Source: Terrimicrobiaceae bacterium
GTDB lineage: Bacteria; Verrucomicrobiota; Verrucomicrobiia; Chthoniobacterales; Terrimicrobiaceae
Length of the DNA stretch: 64,000 bases
Direction of reading: 5' to 3'
Assembly: GCA_044342325.1 (NCBI GenBank)
Contig: JBIIPZ010000014.1
Coordinates: 1 to 64,000 of the forward strand
Under the pieces are notes generated by a model. That model saw nothing but the letters and a program-made list of their open reading frames with translations, made no database searches and was not told the origin of the DNA. Numbering within the stretch: the stretch's first letter is position 1; each line of letters begins with the position of its first letter. Position numbers and translations under genes: made by a program. Positions 1-64,000 of the stretch are shown one piece after another.

Positions 1-747
1 CGGGAAAAATCGGGAGCTGGATTTGCGGCATACCCCACTATCAGCACACGAGAGGAAGTCCTTCAATTCGGTTCATTGCGCTTCCTCGAAAGCGGTGCAC
101 GCCTCCCGAAGGTCAGGATGTCTGAGCTTAAGGCGGATCACATGGACGTGGTCGATAGTGAACCGCCCCTTGGTGTTTCTATCTACGATCTGGCCGCGAC
201 CATCGGGGCTGTCGGTGGACGCGCCACCATGGATATTCTGAGCTTCTCTGCCTCGTGGAAACCCATCGAGCGCCTGGAATTTTTCGGCAAATACAAACTG
301 GCCGTATTGACGGGCGAGAGCATCCTCAACGACTACTATGTGAACGCCTCTTACAGCTTGCTGCGTTCGCCGCTCGTGCGGGTGGGCTATGGGTTCTCGC
401 AAACGCGCTTCAGCAAAGCCTCGCCGGTCTATCAAGACGGAGCGAACTCCACCTCGTTCTACTACGATCCAGCAGACTTGCTTGTGCAGAATTACTACGC
501 AGAGTTTTCGCAAAACCTGGGGAAAAATTTCGCCTACGGAGCGGAGGCTCACTTTTACCAGCAACCGCTCAATGGCGGCATAGGCGCCGGCTTCTTTGGG
601 CATGTCAAATACAGCCTGAGAGGCAACCAGGCGCTGCGGATCGATGTCAGCTACTTCAGTCAAGACCGAGGGCTCAATCGCGATGGAACCTCCTCGGCGC
701 ATTACGATTCCTTAAACATTGTGGCCAGTTATGAATTCCGATTCTAA
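1..747 (+). CDS. Putative outer-membrane beta-barrel protein (5' partial)
   Basis: Frame is open from base 1. Alternating aromatic/polar beta-strand pattern and C-terminal YEFRF (terminal Phe beta-signal). Overlaps the downstream GT2 start. Confidence 0.6.
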   Translation, partial: REKSGAGFAAYPTISTREEVLQFGSLRFLESGARLPKVRMSELKADHMDVVDSEPPLGVSIYDLAATIGAVGGRATMDILSFSASWKPIERLEFFGKYKLAVLTGESILNDYYVNASYSLLRSPLVRVGYGFSQTRFSKASPVYQDGANSTSFYYDPADLLVQNYYAEFSQNLGKNFAYGAEAHFYQQPLNGGIGAGFFGHVKYSLRGNQALRIDVSYFSQDRGLNRDGTSSAHYDSLNIVASYEFRF

Positions 748-2275
748 GACATTACCGGCATCGCCACAAGAACCGACGCGAAAGCGCCGATATCATGATC
801 AAATCCTCACGCAGCATGCGCGGCGGAATTTCCTCGCCTTTCTCATCACGGTGACCTGCGCACTGGCCTACCTCGTTTGGATCACCTTCCATATCGATTA
901 CAACTATTGGTATATAGCCTTCCCTTATATTTTTGCCGAAGTTATTAGCTTCATTAGCATGCTGCTGTGGAGTGAAATGATGATGCGCCGCCGAGAGCAC
1001 GCGCCATCCGGGTTGGCTATGGAAAATCCCCCGCCGCCGGTGGATGTGATCATTACCTGTTGTGGGGAGCCGTTTTCCATTGTGGAAAAAACACTGCGCG
1101 CTGCTGCGGCCATAGACTATCCCGATTTCTCGGTGACGGTGGCGGATGATCGGCATAATATTGATATCGAGAGGCTATGCACTGAACTGGGGGTGCAATA
1201 CTTGCTTCGCCCCACGCATGAGAACCGCAAGGCGGGAAATCTCAATTATGCCCTTCGGCACACCACAAATCCTTTCTTGCTTGTCCTTGATGCCGATCAG
1301 ATGGCGCACCACCGTATTCTCAAAGTCCTCATGGGCTACTTTGCTGTTGCGAAAATAGGCTTTGTCACGACCTACCAAGCTTTTGATGTGCCTGAAGGCG
1401 ACCCTTGGTCCAATCGTGACCGGGTTTTCTACGGGGCCATGCAAACGTCACGAAACGCCTCAAACTCTTCCATATCCTGCGGCTCTGGTGTCGTTTATCG
1501 CCGGCAGGCCCTGAATCAAATTGGCGGTTTCGCTACATGGAGTCTGGTGGAGGACCTTTACTCGTCGCTCCTGCTACATGCCGCCGGTTGGAAAAGCGTT
1601 TACCATCCCTATCCAGCCACGCATGGCACGGCACCGGCAGAAATCACCGGCCATGTCCGCCAGCGCTGGCAGTGGGCGGTGGATTCGCTCCGCTTGCTCT
1701 TTTGGCGAAACCCGCTTTTTACAAAAGGCCTGAGCTGGGAACAAAAGCTCAATTACATTGGCTTTGGCTATAATTATTTACTTTTTGGTCTGGCCTACCC
1801 GATTTTTTATCTCCTGCCGATCTGGGGGCTTTTTAGCGGGTGTTTTTTCCTGAAGACGAGCGCCTTGGCTTTTCTGCTTTGGCGCATGCCTTATGCGGTT
1901 GCTTTTTATATTTTTAACCGCTTCTCCACCGAGTGGCGGCATAGCTCCAAATCCTTCCGCGCACAGGCTGTGTTGTTTGAGGTTTACATCAGCGCGATTA
2001 TTACCGCGCTCTTGTCGCGCAGGCATTTACCCCACTACTTCGTCACAAAAAAAGTCTCCGAGATCCCGATGCTGATCGAGCGTTTGAACCATGTCTTGCC
2101 GCATATTGCTATTATGGCACTCAGCTTGACAGGAATTATTTATGGCTTTTTTCACAGTTCCGAAAACCAAGTTTTTTATTACATCAACGCAGGCTGGGCG
2201 CTCTGGGTCATATGGATCCTCCTCCCATTCACCATCCTCGCCTTACGCGATCCCGCAGAAAAAACCAAGTCCTAA
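731..2275 (+). CDS. Cellulose synthase-like GT2 glycosyltransferase, no PilZ domain
   Basis: Motifs DD, KAGNLN, DADQ, SCGS, VED and QRWQW; N- and C-terminal TM helices. ATG at 731. Confidence 0.85.
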   Translation: MNSDSKTLPASPQEPTRKRRYHDQILTQHARRNFLAFLITVTCALAYLVWITFHIDYNYWYIAFPYIFAEVISFISMLLWSEMMMRRREHAPSGLAMENPPPPVDVIITCCGEPFSIVEKTLRAAAAIDYPDFSVTVADDRHNIDIERLCTELGVQYLLRPTHENRKAGNLNYALRHTTNPFLLVLDADQMAHHRILKVLMGYFAVAKIGFVTTYQAFDVPEGDPWSNRDRVFYGAMQTSRNASNSSISCGSGVVYRRQALNQIGGFATWSLVEDLYSSLLLHAAGWKSVYHPYPATHGTAPAEITGHVRQRWQWAVDSLRLLFWRNPLFTKGLSWEQKLNYIGFGYNYLLFGLAYPIFYLLPIWGLFSGCFFLKTSALAFLLWRMPYAVAFYIFNRFSTEWRHSSKSFRAQAVLFEVYISAIITALLSRRHLPHYFVTKKVSEIPMLIERLNHVLPHIAIMALSLTGIIYGFFHSSENQVFYYINAGWALWVIWILLPFTILALRDPAEKTKS

Positions 2276-2277
2276 TT

Positions 2278-4641
2278 ATGTCAAACGATTCGAACACCAT
2301 CCCCAGTCCCTCTCTACTGAAAGATGAATCGCTTGCTAAATCACCAAATCTACATGATGCAAAGCGCATTTCTACTTTAAATGACCTTCCTCTTATCAAT
2401 ACGGAGTCCGATATCGCTTTTGACGATCTGATTGCTCTGGCCTCCCTTCTCACCGACACCCCGCTCGGCGCTATCTCATTTGTTGATAATGACCAGGCAT
2501 GGATTAAAAGCACACACGGCTTTGAACCAAAAAAGTTGGAACTCAGTCCCGCCTTTGCCGTTCAGACCATTCGAGAGCAAGAACCTTGCTTTGTTGTGCC
2601 AGATGCCACGAAAGACGAGCGGTTTGCAAATAATCCACTGGTCACGGGTGACCCCCATATTCGCTTCTATGCGGGCGTGCCGATGCTCGGTGCCGAAGGC
2701 GTGCCGCTCGGCAGCTTTTCCGTCATGGATCGCAAGCCCCGCGAATTAACACCTCATCAGATGGAACTGCTCCAGCATATCGCACGTATCGCCATGGATT
2801 TGGCCGAGCGCGAGCGGCGGCGGCGCATCCTGGAAAAACACGTCCTCTTCGGGGAGCAGGTTGGCTTGGGATTGCCTGACGTCATCTCCCAGCTTGCATC
2901 ACCCACCGGGCAGATTCAGGCCCTGATTTCCAATCTTGTCAAGGAATACACCCCGTTGCTTGGATGGGTTGCCGCGCGCATCCAGCGCTTTCACGACGGC
3001 GCTTCCGCCGAGCTGTGTCATACGCCTGATGAGCCGCCAACACCCTTACAGCAAGCAATATGGGAGAAGTTGGATCAGACGGCTCTCCTTGCTACGGATG
3101 TGTTGCGTCAAGGTGCGATCTACGGGAGTGAAGCGGAGGAGGGGCGGGTATTTTTTTATGCGGTTATTCCTCTCAAATTTACGAGCCATGTGCTTGCACG
3201 GGTGGATTTTCTTTGCACAGTCCCTCAAGATAGCCGGTTTGATAATCTCTTCAAGCTCATGCTCGCCTCATTTGGTGCCATGGCTGAGAAGGTCATTCAT
3301 TTGGAGGAGCTGAAATATTACGTCGATCATGACTCGCTGACAGGGCTTGCCAACCGGAGTCTTCTTATCAATGAGATCGATAAACTCATTCAACTCACAC
3401 GCGTTGAGAAACCGATAGGACTTCTTTTCCATATACGCTTCGACAGCATCACCGAGATCAACGACAACTTCGGCTACACTGCTGGAGATAATGCGCTTAT
3501 CGAGGCTGCAAAGCGTTTGAAATCACTCCAAGGTGGCAATGCTTTTGTGGCACGGGTCGGTGGCGATAAGTTTATGGTGCTCATGAGGGATCTGGATCTG
3601 GAGAAAAACTTCTCAAGCCTCCTCAGCGAGGTTGAGGTGTGTGTGGCGCTTCCATTTCGTATCAACCACGATGAAATCCGCATTTCCGCCGATGTGGGTT
3701 GCACCGTGATCAGCGACCCCACGGCCCACCCCATCGAAATGCTCCGCCGCGCAGAAGTGACTCTGCGCCATGCGACATCCCAGGAAGTCGGCGCTCACCG
3801 AAAAGTCTACACCTACCACGAGCAGATGTTTCAAGAGCGCCTCGAGCTCCATAAGACCAATCTTCTGATCAGGCAGGCTTATAGTGAAAACCGGTTTCTG
3901 CTCCGATTCCAACCTGTATACGATCTGACCACCAATAGCTTGATCGGCGCAGAGACGCTTCTGCGATTGAGACAAAAAGATGGCGAAATCTTGGATGCTG
4001 GCCAATTCATTTCAGCCATTCCACGCATCCGCTACCAAGCCAGTATTGACGAATGGGTTTTCAGCGAGTTTCTCCGACAATTTGGCGAACGCAGTTCAGG
4101 TCGAAAACTTCTGGAAATCAAAAATTTTATGCTCAGCTTGAATGTGACGCCTGTCTTTCTTTCCGTGAAAGGATTCGCAAAAAAATGGCTGGCCAAATTA
4201 TCCAATGCGGGCATCCCTCCCCATGTCATCGTCTTGGAAGTGGTGGAAAGCCCCCTCCTCCTCGCCAATGAGAGCTTGATCGATAACTTAAATCAGCTTC
4301 GCGCCGCCGGCGTGAGGGTGTCGGTGGATGACTTTGGTTCCGGATACAGCAATCTACGACATCTCATCCAATTGCCGGTGGATATCGTGAAATTCGACAA
4401 AGCCTTTTTGTCCGAACTTTCTGGTCAGGACAGCAGATCCCGAGTCCTCTTGCCAAGCCTCATCACACTCTGCCACGAGCTGGGCTACAGCCCCATGTGC
4501 GAAGGCGTCGAGACATCCGAGCAAGTCGAATTCCTCCGCCACACGAAATGTCGCTTCGTCCAAGGCTATTTCTACGGAAAAGCCATGCCGCTTGCCGATG
4601 TCCTGGCGCTTTCTTTACAAGGCTCTCCGTCGACCGCCTAG
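2278..4641 (+). CDS. GAF-GGDEF(degenerate)-EAL protein, likely c-di-GMP phosphodiesterase
   Basis: GAF (IRFYAGVPM), HDSLTGLANR, GGDKF, FQPVYDL..AETLLR, DDFGSGYS, EGVET, QGYFYGK. ATG at 2278, 2 nt after the GT2 stop. Confidence 0.9.
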   Translation: MSNDSNTIPSPSLLKDESLAKSPNLHDAKRISTLNDLPLINTESDIAFDDLIALASLLTDTPLGAISFVDNDQAWIKSTHGFEPKKLELSPAFAVQTIREQEPCFVVPDATKDERFANNPLVTGDPHIRFYAGVPMLGAEGVPLGSFSVMDRKPRELTPHQMELLQHIARIAMDLAERERRRRILEKHVLFGEQVGLGLPDVISQLASPTGQIQALISNLVKEYTPLLGWVAARIQRFHDGASAELCHTPDEPPTPLQQAIWEKLDQTALLATDVLRQGAIYGSEAEEGRVFFYAVIPLKFTSHVLARVDFLCTVPQDSRFDNLFKLMLASFGAMAEKVIHLEELKYYVDHDSLTGLANRSLLINEIDKLIQLTRVEKPIGLLFHIRFDSITEINDNFGYTAGDNALIEAAKRLKSLQGGNAFVARVGGDKFMVLMRDLDLEKNFSSLLSEVEVCVALPFRINHDEIRISADVGCTVISDPTAHPIEMLRRAEVTLRHATSQEVGAHRKVYTYHEQMFQERLELHKTNLLIRQAYSENRFLLRFQPVYDLTTNSLIGAETLLRLRQKDGEILDAGQFISAIPRIRYQASIDEWVFSEFLRQFGERSSGRKLLEIKNFMLSLNVTPVFLSVKGFAKKWLAKLSNAGIPPHVIVLEVVESPLLLANESLIDNLNQLRAAGVRVSVDDFGSGYSNLRHLIQLPVDIVKFDKAFLSELSGQDSRSRVLLPSLITLCHELGYSPMCEGVETSEQVEFLRHTKCRFVQGYFYGKAMPLADVLALSLQGSPSTA

Positions 4642-4656
4642 GCACACGCCGCCAAA
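4581..4656 (+). repeat. Direct repeat copy 1 (3' end of EAL gene plus downstream bases)
   Basis: Aligns to 5114-5192 with 6 substitutions and one 3-bp indel. Confidence 0.9.
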
Positions 4657-4661
4657 AAAAA

Positions 4662-5081
4662 GGGGTCAGGCATAAATTATTGACATGATTCTCCTGATTC
4701 ACGCCTGAAAGTCTCGGCATGGCGAGAGGTAAGTTCAATCATAAGATTCAGTCATTTAGACATTTGCTTACACATTTAGTGGAAGGATCATCGTCTCGCA
4801 TGGCCCAAGATTCAGCCGCGCAGCGGCGTCCGATTGTAGCCTGGTCGTCACGACCGTGCAGGGCGCCGGGCAAGGCGTGCTGGTGTCTGAGAGTGGGCCA
4901 TGCCAACCGAAGCACTGGGAAGTGCGAAGAAAGCACATCGCCGATAAAAAGGGGTCAGGCATAAATTATTGACATCCGTCTGTCGTGTTAAAAGACTTAA
5001 AAAGAGGTTGGACTTGATCGAAAGCAACGAAAAGTAGGGACCCAGAAATCGGAATTATGTCAATAATTTATGCCTGACCCC
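4662..5081. mobile_element. MITE-like or degraded transposon remnant with 25-bp terminal inverted repeats
   Basis: GGGGTCAGGCATAAATTATTGACAT at 4662-4686 and 4951-4975, exact reverse complement at 5057-5081. No intact transposase inside. Confidence 0.65.
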
Positions 5082-5113
5082 TTAACGCACCCGCAAAGCT
5101 ATTTTTACTTAAG

Positions 5114-5192
5114 AGCCATGCCGCTTGCGGAAGTTCTGGCGCTTTCTTTACAAGGCTCTCCGTCGAGAGCCTTGTAGGCACACGGCGCCAAA
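5114..5192 (+). repeat. Direct repeat copy 2 (orphan diverged EAL-gene C-terminus AMPLAEVLALSLQGSPSRAL*)
   Basis: Near-duplicate of 4581-4656. Confidence 0.9.
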
Positions 5193-5193
5193 C

Positions 5194-5796
5194 TTACGCC
5201 GCCATGTAGGGCAGGGTCGCGGCGCGGGTGCGCACGGCGTCGATGCCTTCGAGGAGATCGGCGATTGCGTCCCATTTGCCGGTCACAAGCGCCTCGTGGG
5301 CGTGTGGGGCGATGGTGATGGGGAAGTCCATGTCGGCGATGGAGAGTTTTTTCTCGGTGAGGTCGAGGGTGAGGAGTGCGGCGGGGTCGGACTCGATGAG
5401 TTTGGCGACGGAGCGGATGTCCTCGCCGGTCATCACGACGCAAGGCATGCCGAGGGTGATGGAATTTCCAAAGAAAATCTCGGCGAAGCTTTCGGCGATG
5501 ATGGCGCGGATGCCGAAGCGGTAGAGTGCCTGCGGGGCGTGCTCGCGGGAGCTGCCGCAGCCGAAGTTGGAGCCGGAGAGCAGAATGCTGGCGCCGGTGA
5601 AGCGGGCGTCGTCGAGCGGGTGGGTTTGTCCGTCGGCTTTGGCGAAGGCGCGGGCGTCGTAGAAGGCGAATTCGCCGAGCCCGTCAAAGGTGATGCACTT
5701 CATGAAACGGGCGGGGATGATGCGGTCGGTGTCGAGGTCGTCGCCGGGCACATAGACGCCGCGTCCGCCGACTTGGGTGATTTTTTCAAGAGCCAT
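5194..5796 (-). CDS. leuD: 3-isopropylmalate dehydratase small subunit
   Basis: DLDTDRIIPARF and NFGCGSSREHAPQAL; downstream of leuC. Confidence 0.97.
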   Translation of the reverse strand: MALEKITQVGGRGVYVPGDDLDTDRIIPARFMKCITFDGLGEFAFYDARAFAKADGQTHPLDDARFTGASILLSGSNFGCGSSREHAPQALYRFGIRAIIAESFAEIFFGNSITLGMPCVVMTGEDIRSVAKLIESDPAALLTLDLTEKKLSIADMDFPITIAPHAHEALVTGKWDAIADLLEGIDAVRTRAATLPYMAA

Positions 5797-5818
5797 AGTT
5801 TTTTAAAATGTGGAGTGT

Positions 5819-7228
5819 TTAGTTGATGCCGAAGACTTCGCGGGCGTCGGAGATTTCTCCAGAGAGGGCTGCGGCGGCGACCATGAGGGGCGACATGAGG
5901 ACGGTGCGTCCGGTCGGGCTGCCTTGGCGGCCTTTGAAATTGCGGTTGCTCGAGCTGGCGCAGAGTTGTTCGCCGACGAGTTTGTCGGGGTTCATGCCGA
6001 GGCACATGGAGCATCCGGCACCGCGCCATTCGAAGCCGGCTTCGCGGAAGATTTCCGCCAGACCCATGCTCTCGGCGACGCTGGCGACGCCTTGCGAGCC
6101 GGGGACGACGATGGCTTTCACGCCTTTATTGACCTTGCGGCCTTTGATATAGCGGGCGACTTCCTGGAGGTCGCTCAGGCGGCCGTTTGTGCAGCTGCCG
6201 AGGAAGGCGACATCGACTTTCGTGCCTTTGATAGGGTTGCCGGATTTCAACAGCATGTGCGCAAGCGCCTCTTCGGCGGTCGAGCGGTCTTTCTCCGGAA
6301 CCTCGTTCGGGAATGGCACCTTCTCATGAATGAAAATGGCCTGCCCGGGATTGATGCCCCAGGTCACGGTCGGCGAGATGTCGGCAGCGTCGAAGGTCAC
6401 GATGTCGTCGTAGTGGGCATCCGGGTCGGATGCGGTGGCATTCCAGCGGGCGACGGCGGCATCCCAGTCAGCACCCTTCGGTGAGTAGGGACGGCCTTTG
6501 AGATACTCGAAAGTAGTTTCGTCGGGGTTCACATAACCCACGCGCGCGCCGCCTTCGATGGACATGTTGCAAACGGTCATGCGCTCTTCTTGTGTGAAGG
6601 CGTCGAAGGTTGTGCCGCCGTATTCGTAGGCGTAGCCGAGACCACCGTTCACCCCGAGTTTGCGGATGATGTGCAGGATGACATCCTTGGCATACACGCC
6701 GGGAGTGAGTTTTCCATTCACATTGATCCGGCGAACCTTGGGCTTGTGGAGCGCCATGGTCTGTGTGGCGAGGACATCACGCACCTGGCTGGTGCCGATG
6801 CCGAAGGCGATCGCGCCGAAGGCACCGTGGGTCGAGGTGTGCGAGTCGCCGCAAGCGATCGTGGTGCCGGGTTGGGTGATGCCCTGCTCGGGGCCGACGA
6901 TGTGGACGATGCCCTGTTTGCCGGTGGGAAGGTCGAAGAAGGTGATGCCATTTTCCGCGCAGTTCGAGCGCAGCGCCTTGATCATGGCATCCGCGAGGTC
7001 GTCGCTGAATGGCTCGGAGCGTTCATCCGTGGGCACGATGTGATCCACTGTGGCGAAGGTGCGCGAAGGGTAGAGCACTTTGAGATTCAAGTCGCGCAAC
7101 ATGCCGAAGGCCTGCGGGCTGGTGACCTCGTGAATGAGGTGGGTGCCGATCAAAAGTTGGGTGGCTCCATTCGGAAGAGTGCGGACGGTGTGGGCGGCCC
7201 ACACCTTGTCGAGTAGCGTCTGGCTCAT
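5819..7228 (-). CDS. leuC: 3-isopropylmalate dehydratase large subunit
   Basis: [44 protein letters not shown]. Start set at ATG 7228 (MSQTLLDKV). Confidence 0.97.
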
Positions 7229-7384
7229 AGTTAAGAACGGTTGAGAATATCGGTTTAGCGGCTCCTTGCAAGACACGACACTTGCAAAAGCCACAAAATT
7301 CGCGAGGATGACCTGTGCTCGCAGTCCTAACAATACCGTGATCACCTAAGCGGCCGCCTGGTTCGGCTGCACCTTATCTGCCAC

Positions 7385-8527
7385 ATGAAAAATATCCTCA
7401 GCAAAATTCGAGTCACCAACAGCATCTTCCTCATCGGAACCTTCCTCGTCACCTGCACGGCCGTTCCTCTCTACATCTGGCAAAACGGCCTCAATTTCTT
7501 CCAGGTGGCTTTGTTTTTCTTCTTCACCTTTTCCACAGGCATGAGCATCACGCTCGGCTACCACCGCCTGTTCTCGCACCTTACCTTCCAAGCGAATCCG
7601 CTGGTGAAACTTTACACCCTGCTCTTCGGTGCGGCGGCTTTTGAAGGTTCCGCTCTCGCTTGGTCGGCCGACCACCGCCGCCACCACAAATTTGTCGACC
7701 ACGATGACGATCCCTATGACATCTCGCGCGGGCTTTTCCATGCCCACATCGGCTGGCTTCTCTTCCGCCGCAGCCCCGACACGCCTCTTACATGGGTGAG
7801 GGATTTGCAAAAAGACCGTCTCGCCTGGTGGCAGCACGAATATTATGTGCCGATTGCCATTTTCATGAGCTTCGGCCTGCCTGCGCTCATCGGCTACATC
7901 TATGGTGGTGCCAATGCCGCCCTTGGCGCGTTCCTGCTCTCCGGCTTCGCCCGCGTCGTGCTCGTGCACCACTCGACCTTCTGCATCAACTCGCTCTGCC
8001 ACTGGATTGGCGACCGCCCGTATTCCACCCACTGCTCCGCTCGCGACAGCTTCCTCATGGCGGTCTTCACCTTCGGCGAGGGCTACCACAACTTCCACCA
8101 CGAGTTCCAGTATGACTACCGGAATGGCGTCAAACCTTGGCAATACGATCCCACCAAGTGGGCGATCTGGATTCTCAACAAACTCGGCCTGACCAGCAAC
8201 CTCCGCACCGTGCCAGAGGAAAAAATCCTCAAAGCGCAAATCGCCGAGCATGACCGCCTGCTGGAGGCGAAATTGCTCGCCCAGCCCACCCCAATCTCCG
8301 ATTCGATCCATGCCATGGTCCAAAGTGCCCGCGCCCGCATGGATGAAGCCCTACTCCGCTGGGAAGAACTGCTCGTCGAATACCGCGCCGCCGCTGCAGG
8401 AAAAACCGAAATATCCCGTCGGGAAATGGCCGAACTCCGCAAGAGCCTGCAAAAAGCCAGCGATCAATTTCGCCAATCCCTGCGCGATTGGAAAAATACC
8501 TGGCAAAGCCTGCCTGCGGCTTGCTGA
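7385..8527 (+). CDS. Delta-9 acyl-CoA/acyl-lipid desaturase with C-terminal helical extension
   Basis: His boxes HRLFSH, HRRHH, HNFHH; GEGYHNFHH; YDPTKW. Confidence 0.92.
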   Translation: MKNILSKIRVTNSIFLIGTFLVTCTAVPLYIWQNGLNFFQVALFFFFTFSTGMSITLGYHRLFSHLTFQANPLVKLYTLLFGAAAFEGSALAWSADHRRHHKFVDHDDDPYDISRGLFHAHIGWLLFRRSPDTPLTWVRDLQKDRLAWWQHEYYVPIAIFMSFGLPALIGYIYGGANAALGAFLLSGFARVVLVHHSTFCINSLCHWIGDRPYSTHCSARDSFLMAVFTFGEGYHNFHHEFQYDYRNGVKPWQYDPTKWAIWILNKLGLTSNLRTVPEEKILKAQIAEHDRLLEAKLLAQPTPISDSIHAMVQSARARMDEALLRWEELLVEYRAAAAGKTEISRREMAELRKSLQKASDQFRQSLRDWKNTWQSLPAAC

Positions 8528-18448: not shown

Positions 18449-19111
18449 ATGAAAACGCGCCTATTTTGCTCCCTCCTTGCGTCGCTCGCTTTATTAGCAG
18501 GTTCCGCTCGAGCCCAAGTTCTCATCTATGACCTCGCCTTGGACAAAACCGGGCCCAGTGTGAATTACACATTCTTCGACAGCGGATATCTCGTAGTCGA
18601 TCTCTCTGCCTCCACATTTTCATCCGTAATCGTCCTCACAGACCCAAATACATTCCGTTACTACCAGACAGCTGGGCTGGTAGCTGGCAGTTACGAAACA
18701 ATGCTCAATTACTCTGGCTACAACCATGCTGTTATGTATGGAACATCGTCAGGCACAGACAATGCCTCCTTGCAGGTCATTGGTGCCATCGAGTCGAACA
18801 GCAATATCGGTGGAGAGCAGCGCTCCATTCTTGCGAAAAAACTCCAAGGCTACTTTCTGGCCAGTGGTGCTCAAGTTGATGCCACCACGACAAACGGCAC
18901 AACTTCCAACTCCACGATTACAAGCTTTGAATACGGCTATGCTGGCTTCAGCAAAGCTACCGCGACTTACAACACAAAACTGACCAAGCAAGCGAACAAT
19001 CAAGGTTATGGCGGCGCAGCGGCGCTAGATTTGGTAGGCCAGATTCTTGCCAACCGAGGCGTGCCCGGCTACACGCCCACCCCGACTCCTACTCCCACGC
19101 CGACGCCCTGA
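18449..19111 (+). CDS. Hypothetical secreted protein, Ser/Thr/Tyr-rich, C-terminal (TP)6 repeat
   Basis: Signal peptide ending ARA-Q; ends YTPTPTPTPTPTP. Confidence 0.75.
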   Translation: MKTRLFCSLLASLALLAGSARAQVLIYDLALDKTGPSVNYTFFDSGYLVVDLSASTFSSVIVLTDPNTFRYYQTAGLVAGSYETMLNYSGYNHAVMYGTSSGTDNASLQVIGAIESNSNIGGEQRSILAKKLQGYFLASGAQVDATTTNGTTSNSTITSFEYGYAGFSKATATYNTKLTKQANNQGYGGAAALDLVGQILANRGVPGYTPTPTPTPTPTP

Positions 19112-19166
19112 GCGCTCCCCGTTCGGGAGGCCAGGCACATATTCTCGCGGCATCTGGATTTATTTC

Positions 19167-19193
19167 TAAATCCGGGAAGAGAAATGCCGATGT
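19167..19193 (+). promoter_or_regulatory. Sigma28 (FliA)-type promoter
   Basis: TAAA (19167-70), exactly 15 nt, GCCGATGT (19186-93); consensus TAAA-N15-GCCGATAA. About 70 nt upstream of the flagellin-like ORF. Confidence 0.75.
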
Positions 19194-19229
19194 TTTACCT
19201 TGGCAGGCGCAAACCCGCGTGAGCCCGAA

Positions 19230-19263
19230 AGCGGAACGGAATCCGCAAAACAAGACAAAGGAT
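19230..19263 (+). promoter_or_regulatory. Putative CsrA/RsmA-binding sites in leader
   Basis: Hairpin GCGGA-ACGGAA-TCCGC with GGA in the loop, and AAGGA overlapping the SD just before ATG. Confidence 0.45.
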
Positions 19264-19962
19264 ATGTCGTTCATCATCAAATCTAACGCTTCTTCCGCAT
19301 TTGCCGCACGCGGACTACAGGAGAGGCACGCCCACGACCGGCGCACCGAGCACCGGCCGAACCTGACCTCACGCCATCAAGAATCGCTCGGCGATTCCTG
19401 CGACCTGACGAATTCCGGCAAATCCGCCGCCGCTATTCGTGAAGCGGGGTATTTTCAAGCACGCCTCAACGAATCCCTTTCCTTTCTCCAGACGCAGGAT
19501 TCCGCCCTCGGGCAAATCCAGAATCTGTTTGTGAACGCCCCCGAGCAGCAGGATTTCCTGGATATTTTTGACTCCCTCAGCGGCGAAAAATTCAACGGTT
19601 TCGACCTTTTCACTCACGACGGCGAAGAGCAGCCTCTCTTTGTGCAGGCTTCGGAAATCGCAGATATGGTGTGCATCCACCGGCCGCTCATGAGCGCGGA
19701 AAGCCCTTCAGCCTCGCTGCAAGAAGCCGTTCTCGCCGCCCGCGAGGAAAATCAAAAGGAACAAGCCAAGCTCCGCGAGATCTCGGTTTCCACCGCAAAA
19801 ATCCAGCTCTGCCCCGACATGGCAGCTGAAAAAATTTCAACGGCCCAATCCGCAAAAGAAACCATAGCTCGCTCCCAAAAATATGTCCTCTCGGATGCCG
19901 CCACGGCGCTCTCCGGACAGGCGAACTCGGCCCACGAGGCCGTCTTAAGGCTCTTTGCCTAA
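19264..19962 (+). CDS. Divergent, shortened flagellin-like protein (232 aa)
   Basis: N-term MSFIIKSNASSAFAARGL, SLSFLQTQDSAL, GEKFNGFDLF; C-term VLSDAATALSGQANSAHEAVLRL resembles the flagellin D0 helix. Sigma28 promoter upstream. Confidence 0.75.
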   Translation: MSFIIKSNASSAFAARGLQERHAHDRRTEHRPNLTSRHQESLGDSCDLTNSGKSAAAIREAGYFQARLNESLSFLQTQDSALGQIQNLFVNAPEQQDFLDIFDSLSGEKFNGFDLFTHDGEEQPLFVQASEIADMVCIHRPLMSAESPSASLQEAVLAAREENQKEQAKLREISVSTAKIQLCPDMAAEKISTAQSAKETIARSQKYVLSDAATALSGQANSAHEAVLRLFA

Positions 19963-20033
19963 CAGTTCATGCAGGGCTCTCCCTTTCGCCGTGGCTCCCC
20001 GGCGTATCGGTGCAATTCGCCTGATTTCAAGGG

Positions 20034-20444
20034 GTGAAAAAAGGCGCTCAAAACCCCTCGCTATGGATTGCGATTGGCGGCGCCTTGGGTGCGCTATCGC
20101 GACATGGAGTTGACCTCGCAGCGACTTGTTTGCTCCATCCAAGTGTAGGATTCCCCTGGGGCACATTGACCGTGAATCTAGCCGGCGCGTTCTTTCTCGG
20201 CTGGATTCTGGCGCGAGCTGAAACGGGCGGAGCGGATGCCGAGTGGCTGCGTTGCTTTGCGGGAATCGGCTTCTGCGGAGCGTTCACGACTTTTTCCACG
20301 GTGAATCTCCAGATGCTCGAAATGATGCGCTCAGGCTCGTTGGCGCACGCGGCGATTTATTTTGCCGTCAGTTTTGTTTTAGGCATCGCCGTGGTCTGGG
20401 CCGGCGCAAAGCTCGGTGTGGAAAAGCGGGCTGCCCGGCCATGA
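20034..20444 (+). CDS. crcB: Fluoride efflux channel Fluc/CrcB, subunit 1
   Basis: GGALGALSR, FPWGTLTVNL, GFCGAFTTFST. Confidence 0.93.
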   Translation: MKKGAQNPSLWIAIGGALGALSRHGVDLAATCLLHPSVGFPWGTLTVNLAGAFFLGWILARAETGGADAEWLRCFAGIGFCGAFTTFSTVNLQMLEMMRSGSLAHAAIYFAVSFVLGIAVVWAGAKLGVEKRAARP

Positions 20445-20833
20445 TCGAAATTCTGCTCATTGCCTTGCTGGGTTCCATCGGCGCGCTTGTGCGCTATCAC
20501 CTCGGAGGCTTTGTCCACACAAGCGCAAACCGCGCGCTGGCATCCGAAGCAGATTTTCCTTTCGGGACGCTTTTTGTGAACGCACTTGGTTCGCTTATTC
20601 TGGGCCTGATCGCCGGGCTTTGTTCACAAGAAATGATTCCACAAATTTTCTATGTCGCCATTGGCGTGGGCTTCTGCGGATCACTCACCACATTTTCCAC
20701 GCTGGCGGTCGATCTGCAGCGCTTTCTTCGCGACGGGCGGTTTTCTTTTTTTGCGCTCTACCTTGTCGCCTCGGCTGCGAGCGGTCTCGGTGCCACAACG
20801 CTCGGCTTGGCAGTGGCCCAGATTGTCCGCTAA
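20441..20833 (+). CDS. crcB: Fluoride efflux channel Fluc/CrcB, subunit 2
   Basis: GSIGALVRY, FPFGTLFVN, GFCGSLTTFST; ATGA overlap with the first crcB. Confidence 0.93.
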   Translation: MIEILLIALLGSIGALVRYHLGGFVHTSANRALASEADFPFGTLFVNALGSLILGLIAGLCSQEMIPQIFYVAIGVGFCGSLTTFSTLAVDLQRFLRDGRFSFFALYLVASAASGLGATTLGLAVAQIVR

Positions 20834-58049: not shown

Positions 58050-58310
58050 GTGACAACGACTTTACAAGCATGGGGAAACAGTCAAGGAGTGCGTCTGCCT
58101 AAAGCCCTGCTTGCGTCTTTGGACCTGAAGTCAGGAGCTGCTGTCGAAATCGAGCTAAGCTCGAAGAAAGATGCGATCATCGTGAGACCTGCGAAGTCGC
58201 CGCCGCGCGTCCGAGGTCGGCATCGCATCGAAGATCTCGTGGCGGCCATTCCGAGGGGCTACAAAACTGCCGAATTTGAGTGGGGAACAAGCGGCCGCGA
58301 GGTCTGGTAA
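58050..58310 (+). CDS. mazE: AbrB/MazE family antitoxin
   Basis: WGNSQGVRLPK, IEDLVA, EWGTSGREVW; TAATG coupling. Confidence 0.92.
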   Translation: MTTTLQAWGNSQGVRLPKALLASLDLKSGAAVEIELSSKKDAIIVRPAKSPPRVRGRHRIEDLVAAIPRGYKTAEFEWGTSGREVW

Positions 58311-58645
58311 TGACTGCTTGGATTCCGAAGCAGGGAGATTTGGTGGCGTTGGATTTCGATCCGCAGGCTGGCCATGAACAAAAAGGACGCCGTCCGGCGC
58401 TGGTAGTGAGCAAGGAGGCTTTCAACAAAGGCACCGGTATGGCGATCTGCTGTCCCATAACCAATACGGACCGGAGGATGCCTTTTCATGTTTCCATCGT
58501 AGGGCGCACATCACTAACGGGTTTCGTGATGTGCGAGCAGGTGAAGTCGCTCGATTTTCGATCGCGCGGAATGAAGCTTATTGAACAAGCTCCGCAGGAT
58601 GTGCTGGAGGATGTGCTCTCTATCATTGACGCGTCAGTGTTTTGA
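58310..58645 (+). CDS. mazF: MazF/PemK family endoribonuclease toxin
   Basis: FDPQAGHEQKGRRPALVVS, CPIT, QVKSLD. Confidence 0.95.
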   Translation: MTAWIPKQGDLVALDFDPQAGHEQKGRRPALVVSKEAFNKGTGMAICCPITNTDRRMPFHVSIVGRTSLTGFVMCEQVKSLDFRSRGMKLIEQAPQDVLEDVLSIIDASVF

Positions 58646-62987: not shown

Positions 62988-64000
62988 TTACTCGTCGTCT
63001 TCATCGCTCTCGCCTTTTTTGTAGGTGAGGCCACGGAGTTTTCCTTCGATGAAGGCATCGATGTCGCCATCCATCACCGCTTGAATGTCGCCGGTTTTCA
63101 CGCCGGTGCGGAGGTCTTTCACCATCTGGTAGGGCTGGAAGACATAGCTGCGGATTTGGTTTCCCCAGGCCACATCGCCTTTCTCGCCGTATTGGCGGTC
63201 CACCTCGGCGCGCTTTTTGTCGCTTTCGATTTGGAAAAGTTTCGCCTTGAGGAGTTGGAGGGCGAGTTCGCGGTTGCGGCCTTGGCTGCGCTCAGCCTGG
63301 CAGGCAACGACGATGCCCGTGGGGATGTGCGTGAGGCGGCAGGCGGTTTCGACCTTGTTCACATTCTGCCCGCCTTTACCGCCGGCGCGGAAGGTGTCGA
63401 GCTTGATGTCCGCCTCGTTGACTTCCACTGGCACATCCTCGATTTCCGGCACGGCATCCACACTGGCAAATGATGTGTGGCGGCGCTTGTTCGAATCGAA
63501 AGGCGAGATACGAACGAGGCGGTGCACTCCGCGTTCGGTCTGCAGGTAGCCGTAGGCGTTCTGGCCAGTGACGCGCAGCGTGGCGGATTTGATGCCTGCC
63601 TCGTCGCCGAGCTGGATATCTGTGATGGCGCACTCGAGTCCGTGGCGTTCCATCCAGCGCTGATACATGCGCAGCAGCATATCGGCCCAGTCGCAAGACT
63701 CGGTGCCGCCCGCTCCGGCATTGATGGAAAGGAAGGCAGGGCAGTTATCGTAGGGCCCGGAGAGCAGGGCGGTGATCTCGAATTTATCGAGGTCTTTTTG
63801 GATCGCGGAAAATTCTGCCATCACTTCGGCGGCAGCGGCGGCTTGATTCTCCGGCGGCTCTTCCATTGAGAGTTCACGCAGAACATCAAGGTCGGCAGCG
63901 CGGGACTCCAGCGCCTGCATGGGTTGAATCTTCGAGCGCAGCGAGGATACCTCGGCGACATCGCGCTGGGCGCGTTCGCGGCTGTCCCAGAAATCCGGCT
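62988..64000 (-). CDS. prfB: Peptide chain release factor 2 (5' partial)
   Basis: [20 protein letters not shown] (SPF), [12 protein letters not shown]; frame open to the window end. Confidence 0.97.

Follow-up and report, generated by a model that had tools for sequence, protein, structure and literature searches.

The stretch of DNA analyzed here (the window) comprises 64,000 nucleotides (nt) of contig JBIIPZ010000014.1 from Terrimicrobiaceae bacterium GCA_044342325.1 (Verrucomicrobiota; Chthoniobacterales), and carries a gene for a shortened flagellin paralog, referred to below as the mini-flagellin, that is preceded by a sigma28-type promoter and a structured leader. The coding sequence (CDS) occupies positions 19264–19962 of the + strand, with an ATG start codon (19264–19266) and a TAA stop codon (19960–19962), and specifies a protein of 232 amino acids (aa) that begins MSFIIKSN and ends AVLRLFA. 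A preliminary description of this DNA had recognized a 232-aa open reading frame (ORF) with termini of the flagellin D0/D1 type, and this is borne out by the translation and by comparison of a family profile with flagellins. The interval given there starts at 19167, which belongs to the promoter, the CDS itself beginning at 19264. An alternative GTG start at 19219 would give a protein of 247 aa, and starts of this kind are adopted in some database entries; the GTG falls within the conserved leader, and the ATG has AAGGA at the usual spacing in 22/22 copies of the gene.

Relationship of the window protein to flagellins

Searched with the single window protein, Pfam returned no flagellin match at E ≤ 1 (noise only) and NCBIfam returned nothing at E ≤ 1e-8. 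The protein lies below the curated cut-offs of both the Flagellin_N (PF00669) and Flagellin_C (PF00700) models, and the ordinary flagellins of the same genome score 60–92 bits with Flagellin_N. A word-seeded search of 5.8 billion proteins recovered 40 homologs with 37–96% identity, mostly 222–268 aa in length, along with two shorter ones spanning 77% of the query; nearly all are unnamed or labeled 'hypothetical', and one is labeled 'flagellin-like hook-associated protein FlgL'. The query and 26 of the 40 homologs were taken as a family of 27 sequences, among which 35 columns are invariant. When these were scanned singly, weak Flagellin_C matches were found in 13 (best E 4.1e-4), and Flagellin_N was absent from the 15 families listed for them.

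The profile of this family gave a clearer result. Against PDB (hmmsearch) it matched flagellins with E values of 1.1e-7 to 1e-4, residues 4–230 aligning to 2–284, and nearly all of the best 60 matches listed were flagellins. Alignment with 14 canonical verrucomicrobial flagellins (hhalign) gave a probability of 99.5% and an E value of 1.2e-22 over 226 columns, from the first to the last residue, and the profile alignments show that the domain order ND0-ND1-hairpin-CD1-CD0 is kept. An AlphaFold2 (AF2) model, with a predicted local distance difference test (pLDDT) score of 69.7 overall and below 50 for residues 1–51, has helices at 48–91, 95–106, 149–182 and 194–231 and a beta-hairpin at 125–138. 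The top Foldseek matches of this model are all flagellins (best E 4.4e-4), and VIA superposition placed residues 43–186 on flagellin D1 with a root-mean-square deviation (rmsd) of 2.1–3.2 over 125–142 residues and a Z of 12.8, a value of a size that helical proteins reach easily according to the tool's own caution. Since the sequence and fold evidence combine, homology of the window protein to flagellin is secure. A flagellin HMM (hidden Markov model) search and a structure prediction had been proposed as checks in the preliminary description, and single-sequence Pfam models miss the protein while the family profile, hhalign and the predicted fold all match flagellins.

The D0 and D1 segments of flagellin are among the most conserved segments of bacterial proteins, and the RLSSG.RIN..DDAGG and SRI.D.D.A.E positions are invariant in the 14 canonical verrucomicrobial flagellins. 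Both are replaced in the shortened family. Alignment with the flagellins of the same genome shows that ND0 and the spoke are unchanged in length, with NLQRSLNRLSSGSRINS..DDAGGLAVS replaced by a polar, Arg/His-rich, proline-containing stretch, so that the RLSSG..DDAAG block is indeed unrecognizable, as had been noted. The helix after LQTQD had been described as apparently deleted, and about 21 columns are in fact gone after LQTQD.AL....L, where ND1a finishes and ND1b begins; in a scan of 1.84 billion proteins, residues 1–120 of the query correspond to 1–141 of ordinary flagellins. The central loop is also shorter, by ~20–35 residues. CD1 and CD0 are of full length and the C-terminus is flagellin-like, with the SRI.D.D motif lost and the pattern [IV]L..A.TA[ML]..QAN....[IV]LRL common to shortened and canonical flagellins. 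In Salmonella flagellin the TLR5 epitope lies in the segment corresponding to the missing ND1a/ND1b stretch. The earlier remark on TLR5 is anatomically correct, though what it would mean for a lake bacterium is not obvious. The His-rich stretch ERHAHDRRTEHRP was considered as a possible metal-binding site, an idea that was rejected because the histidines vary among more distant homologs.

Compared with the canonical short verrucomicrobial flagellins (~265–295 aa, D0/D1-only), the mini-flagellin has the same domain order, D1 fold and promoter type and a homologous leader, but lacks the ND1 and loop residues described above, has the spoke and SRI.D.D motifs replaced, scores below the Pfam cut-offs, sits on a long stem branch in the flagellin tree (see later) and is solitary in the genome.

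Promoter and leader RNA

The sigma28 (FliA)-type promoter lies at 19167–19193 (+ strand) and consists of TAAA (19167–19170), a 15-nt spacer and GCCGATGT (19186–19193), the sigma28 consensus being TAAA-N15-GCCGATAA. TAAA-N15/16-GCCGAT is found 71–74 nt 5' of the ATG in 18/22 copies of the gene under a strict definition, and in 21/22 under a loose one (T[AC]AA / G[AC]CGAT). The 2.93-Mb genome contains the pattern 10 times, where its composition predicts ~4, and three of the ten occurrences precede flagellin-type genes; it is also present 5' of canonical flagellin genes on contigs C9 and C20. An intact sigma28 promoter had been claimed for this gene, and the claim stands, given the presence of TAAA-N15-GCCGATGT, its conserved position across copies and its frequency above chance. 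A scan for sigma70 promoters found 0 sites.

About 70 nt of leader follow the promoter. The GGA motifs to which CsrA binds in flagellin mRNAs lie in hairpin loops and across the ribosome site, and the leader contains two GGA motifs in predicted hairpins that are candidate CsrA sites. The first is in the loop (GGA, 19238–19240) of hairpin 2 (19231–19246, + strand; GCGGA-ACGGAA-TCCGC), which has a 5-bp stem. All 135/135 cells of this stem are paired over 27 leaders (20 from mini-flagellin genes and seven from canonical flagellin genes), compensatory double changes occur in 3/5 pairs, and the covariation score was matched by 0/500 shuffles, whereas slid registers, used as a control, pair at only 23–44%. 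The second candidate site is in the Shine-Dalgarno hairpin (19254–19268, + strand; GACA-AAGGAUA-UGUC), which places a GGA (19260–19262) in the loop and the AUG (19264–19266) in the stem, and is predicted in 16/20 mini-flagellin leaders as well as in four flagellin leaders of the MSVVINTN type. A[AC]GGA[TA]ATG is present in 22/22 copies, as is the combination of hairpin 2 with the Shine-Dalgarno motif. Upstream of these, hairpin 1 (19202–19225, + strand; RNAfold) is variable in sequence and specific to mini-flagellin leaders. Single-sequence folds predict it in 19/20 of these leaders even though the sequence is wholly different between subgroups, and the MAFFT alignment of the leaders is out of register at this hairpin.

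The mini-flagellin gene and the four MSVVINTN-type canonical flagellin genes have in common TTTCTAAA-N15/16-GCCGAT, the pattern CCCGA..GCG[AG][AG]ACGGA[AC]T[TC]CGC and an identical AAGACAAAGGATATGTC. A covariance model of the leader found only the mini-flagellin gene and seven flagellin leaders in the 2.93-Mb genome, these eight loci being the model's own training set, and the next match had an E value of 0.22. No Rfam family matched positions 18900–20200 at E ≤ 1, and the leader is thus unrelated in sequence to any known leader family in that database. The promoter and the CsrA-type leader are thus conserved, and have homologous counterparts at flagellin genes of the same genome. The GGA-containing, CsrA-type leader of the preliminary description is likewise upheld, with both GGA motifs conserved and covariation at hairpin 2, and it represents a conserved, covarying leader of the CsrA type for flagellin genes of the Verrucomicrobiota, with no counterpart in Rfam. 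Two subtypes of flagellin leader can be distinguished in the genome, one with an ACGGA loop that accompanies MSVVINTN proteins and one with a GCGGAA loop that accompanies MIS.NTN proteins. The leader is absent from the gene for a 452-aa flagellin and from the gene for a 388-aa flagellin on contig C12.

The B. subtilis hag leader has a two-site architecture. The leader described here is similar in that a hairpin loop holds one GGA site and the Shine-Dalgarno sequence is overlain by another, and in this genome csrA and fliW are adjacent, after flgK-flgL. It differs from hag in that the leader also drives a non-canonical flagellin with a remodeled FliW-contact region. The Hag-FliW-CsrA system of B. 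subtilis is described in two reports (PMC6529632; PMC6070490).

Part of the window is represented in six metatranscriptome runs, of which four (X1–X4) were compared with it. In 4/4 of these, coming from four studies, contigs were found on the gene, with 90–97% likeness, indicating that they come from relatives. Contigs start at 19214 (X3 and X4) and 19222 (X2), that is, 21–29 nt past the -10 box, and this can be taken as a weak hint of transcription from the promoter described above. A 794-nt contig of X3 matches only 19222–19281, and we infer that it represents the mRNA of a canonical flagellin with the common leader. Contigs of X1 and X2 bridge the end of the gene and crcB, while the contigs of X2–X4 give no cover on the upstream gene or at 19607–19748. 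Of the terminator-like sites, two were found against 2.1 expected from shuffles, both inside the CDS, and no terminator was defined.

Genomic setting, distribution and selection

No match to a flagellar family was found at E ≤ 1e-8 among the 60 ORFs of the window, in agreement with the earlier characterization of the gene as an orphan far from flagellar genes. The flagellar genes are elsewhere in the genome. There are ten Flagellin_N matches, representing nine flagellins (265–452 aa) and one FlgL of 388 aa. A single cluster contains flgK (3' end), flgL, fliW and csrA, and both fliS and fliA are present, the latter scoring 231 bits against a cut-off of 189.6 bits. The preliminary description had suggested looking for fliA, csrA, fliW, fliS and full-length flagellins, and all were found. 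Six flagellin genes, one of them encoding the 452-aa protein, are arranged in tandem on contig C9 at ~400–7700 (loci L001, L003 and L005–L008). CsrA (L087:469–759, - strand), encoded directly downstream of fliW, is 96 aa in length and has a long C-terminal extension past the 53-position CsrA domain.

The neighbors of the mini-flagellin gene are as previously reported: two crcB genes and an HU/IHF gene follow it, and a gene for a 220-aa protein with a TPTPTPTPTP tail lies upstream. The block of genes for an amine oxidase, a sugar-phosphate isomerase-like protein, an LPG-synthase-like protein, RibD_C, the TP-tail protein and the mini-flagellin, followed by crcB, crcB and HU, is common to 15/21 related loci. 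Five more distant loci (33–39% identity) have other non-flagellar neighbors, and one locus (L029) is too short for its neighborhood to be judged. At one distant locus a gene for a lectin-domain flagellin lies ~7 kb from the mini-flagellin gene on the same contig; this flagellin, from a related metagenome-assembled genome (MAG; L035:4001–5224, + strand), is 407 aa in length, and its Flagellin_N and Flagellin_C regions flank a C-type lectin domain (PF00059, E 4e-7). The TP-tail protein (18449–19111, + strand) has a hydrophobic N-terminus and belongs to no Pfam family. Its gene shows saturated dS (synonymous divergence; 1.85–2.29) against loci whose other genes have dS of 0.14–0.5, with an omega (dN/dS) of 0.06–0.08, a pattern that looks like allele replacement or recombination at that one gene. 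On the other side, the crcB pair (20034–20833) begins 72 nt after the mini-flagellin gene, and the gap (19962–20034) has no fluoride riboswitch (Rfam, E ≤ 1) and no terminator-like site.

The shortened paralog is confined to one freshwater clade of Chthoniobacterales/Terrimicrobiaceae. Records of its orthologs are from lake MAGs labeled Terrimicrobiaceae, 'Spartobacteria' or Chthoniobacter, and a search of 1.84 billion representative proteins gave 15 clusters at E ≤ 1e-30. Of 201 genomes sampled from the order, only 21 contain a flagellin-like match of any kind, and full-length matches to the mini-flagellin (at least 144 bits) are found in the source genome and in eight of the nine other members of its genus, with none in the rest of the 201. 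In the remaining genus member (G098; 97% complete, with seven Flagellin_N matches and FlhA) no copy was found at the syntenic site, where an unrelated gene in convergent orientation comes after the TP-tail gene. Three further genomes with a single match each (G087, G143 and G174) had appeared to be flagellin-poor genomes carrying a mini-flagellin, but this was rejected since the matches coincide with strong Flagellin_N matches and FlhA is present, so that these are ordinary flagellins.

Selection was examined using the window gene and 20 loci with complete genes, excluding two loci (L028 and L029) that are cut by contig ends. All 21/21 frames are intact, each with a single terminal stop codon, and pairwise Nei-Gojobori dN/dS is 0.11–0.35 where dS is unsaturated, the copies spanning a dS of more than 2. 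Frameshifts and values near 1 had been put forward as evidence that would speak for decay, and neither was seen. The gene is under purifying selection and is not decaying. Measured against five loci, the omega of the mini-flagellin is 0.16–0.29, compared with 0.01–0.12 for four of its neighbors, up to 0.18 for RibD_C and 0.09–0.27 for crcB1. The identity of the protein falls to 47–53% at loci where that of the neighbors is 84–93%, and the lowest value among related loci is 33%.

Constraint differs along the protein (regional omega, summed over 10 pairs). The start of ND0, ND1a, the segment from ND1b to FNG, and CD0 have omega values of 0.13–0.15, and the beta-hairpin, CD1 and the loop 0.22–0.28, while residues 21–50 are the least constrained region of the mini-flagellin (0.40), although the corresponding block of canonical flagellins is invariant. 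At the extreme N-terminus MSF.I is invariant in 27/27 sequences, and part of this conservation may be an RNA constraint imposed by the UGUC stem of the Shine-Dalgarno hairpin.

A quick maximum-likelihood tree of 54 sequences (21 mini-flagellins, 10 sequences from the source genome and 23 canonical loci chosen from the 55 other loci L031–L085) recovered the mini-flagellins as a monophyletic clade (support 100) within the flagellin radiation, on a stem of 2.17 substitutions/site and with FlgL outermost.

Possible role of the mini-flagellin

The reading we favor, tentatively and at a probability somewhat short of even, is that the mini-flagellin is an exported, non-polymerizing, FliW-blind protein comparable to FlaC of Campylobacter jejuni. 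On this reading, a divergent paralog with D0 and D1 only arose within the freshwater Chthoniobacterales/Terrimicrobiaceae clade when a canonical flagellin gene was duplicated along with its promoter and leader. FliA would turn the gene on late in flagellar assembly, and CsrA and FliW would gate its translation alongside that of the true flagellins. The conserved C-terminal D0 helix would still bind FliS, and the protein could then exit via the type III export gate of the flagellum. In the protein, a poorly constrained polar segment takes the place of the latter half of ND0 and of the RLSSG..DDAGG spoke, and the D1 tip is missing. Because of the replaced ND0/spoke block and the deleted D1 tip, the protein probably neither polymerizes as a normal subunit nor titrates FliW, and it may behave like FlaC, as a non-structural flagellin that is secreted or has at most a loose association with the filament.

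It is reported (PMC6070490) that B. subtilis FliW protects flagellin residues 11–34, 50–72 and 240–260, that the first 72 residues suffice for binding, and that FliS wraps flagellin D0-C. C. jejuni FlaC is described (PMC5466977; PMC4863622) as a protein with D0-D1 only that is secreted by way of the flagellum, is dispensable for motility, depends on FliS, and binds this chaperone but not FliW. The anatomy of the mini-flagellin predicts the same chaperone pattern, FliS but not FliW. Going by the published description of FlaC, the two proteins are also alike in being small, in having D0-D1 only and in being encoded apart from the filament genes, but FlaC acts on animal hosts (TLR5, cytokines), whereas the host of the mini-flagellin is a free-living lake bacterium. 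As the mini-flagellin clade nests among verrucomicrobial flagellins, its origin is likely to be independent of FlaC. The preliminary description had offered three options, namely a minor filament component, a FliW/FliS decoy or a cargo of the flagellum's type III secretion system (T3SS). Of these, the T3SS cargo fits best. The poorest fit is a FliW decoy, since the block matching the FliW-binding N-terminus of B. subtilis flagellin is the least constrained.

Several points weigh against the exported, FlaC-like role. Residues 1–51 of the model have a pLDDT below 50, so it is the sequence and not the structure that shows the ND0 helix to be lost. The quick tree joins the mini-flagellin clade to another long branch, the 452-aa flagellin, and does not fix the donor paralog, although this attachment may be an artefact. 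Contigs in RNA libraries show presence but are no proof that the gene is transcribed or of where transcription starts, and in X1 one contig spans the promoter. The FliW-binding data are from Bacillus and Campylobacter, which belong to phyla other than that of the host, and no precedent for a secreted-flagellin role in a free-living bacterium was found in the literature.

An unlikely alternative is that the mini-flagellin is a minor structural subunit used at a special place, such as a short hook- or cap-proximal segment, or as a sparse filler, with the shorter D1 tuning the shape of the filament. The N-terminal start of D0, the D1 core, the beta-hairpin and CD0 are all kept, in the usual order, and show the strongest constraint within the protein, its promoter and leader are the same as those of filament genes, and with nine flagellins already encoded in the genome mixed filaments are plausible. 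Set against this, the second half of ND0 and the spoke, invariant in canonical flagellins, are replaced and weakly constrained, and the divergence is far faster than that of the neighbors, which is unlike a core filament subunit. A flagellated genus member (G098) has no detected copy. A hook-associated position is already served by a true flgL in the flgK-flgL-fliW-csrA cluster. FlgL (HAP3) is itself of the flagellin superfamily, and B. cereus FlgL and a Vibrio HAP are among the fold matches of the mini-flagellin, but the genome's own 388-aa FlgL, encoded beside flgK, fliW and csrA, is the most distant sequence in the tree, the mini-flagellin clade does not group with it, and the mini-flagellin shows neither FlgL orthology nor a position beside flgK.

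It is less probable again that the protein stays in the cytoplasm as a regulator, binding FliS (or FliW or CsrA) and so timing or buffering flagellin export and translation in the manner of Helicobacter pylori HP1076, a FliS-binding co-chaperone with a flagellin-like bundle. Conservation of the FliS-binding C-terminal region would suit such a role, as would the apparent co-regulation of the gene with its presumed targets, and the D1 model superposes on HP1076 with a Z of 12.2 and an rmsd of 2.1 over 111 residues. HP1076, however, was compared by fold, lacks the D0 termini, and matches no better than flagellins, dozens of which tie with it; helical bundles reach such Z values readily. Flagellin export signals reside at the extreme N-terminus, where MSF.I is invariant, and the block at the FliW site is the least constrained, both of which argue against an unexported regulator. 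That the leader acts as an additional CsrA-titrating transcript, with the protein secondary, seems very improbable. The leader is better conserved than the protein, hairpin 2 and the Shine-Dalgarno motif being kept in every copy while protein identity falls as low as 33%, but 21/21 frames are intact, dN/dS is 0.11–0.35 and constraint tracks the borders of the flagellin domains, a state that a purely RNA-level role would not preserve. Least credible of all is a decaying, functionless duplicate. The faster evolution of the gene relative to most of its neighbors, the loss of hallmark motifs and the failure to find it in one genus member would be expected of decay, yet no frameshift or internal stop codon occurs in any of the 21 copies across a dS of more than 2, 35 columns are invariant in 27 sequences, the promoter and leader are conserved, and the gene is represented in RNA libraries. 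The preliminary description had argued for an intact, repurposed flagellin derivative over a decaying pseudogene, and this is supported by the homology, the frames, the dN/dS values, the conserved promoter and leader, the flagellar regulators of the genome and the RNA-library contigs.

This lineage has kept a copy of flagellin whose polymerization and FliW-contact block has escaped constraint, with the export-chaperone end and the entire regulatory front end preserved, and such a natural dissection could reveal what in flagellin is needed for export, for sensing and for assembly. If the FlaC-like reading is correct, non-structural flagellins would also extend beyond the host-associated Campylobacterales. 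A more specific proposal, which we consider doubtful, is that the protein is a FliW-blind passenger of the export/CsrA circuit, made and exported only once the flagellum is complete and flagellin is flowing, and without feedback to the sensor. No earlier FlaC-type non-structural flagellin would then be known from a free-living bacterium of the environment. Such a passenger might act as a released signal, as a decoy (e.g., for flagellotropic phages or grazers) or as a surface-conditioning protein. Present annotations list members of the family as hypothetical or, wrongly, as FlgL, and the flagellin models of Pfam and NCBIfam miss them.

Elsewhere in the window, a gene for a cellulose-synthase-like glycosyltransferase is followed by one for an 809-aa GGDEF-EAL protein (719–4638, + strand), and a MazF-type endoribonuclease toxin gene is present at 58280–58642 (+ strand; NF007386, E 2.9e-28). 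The match of the prfB ORF (62991–63920, - strand) to release factor 2 begins only at model position 61, which would be expected were the gene split by its usual programmed +1 frameshift.

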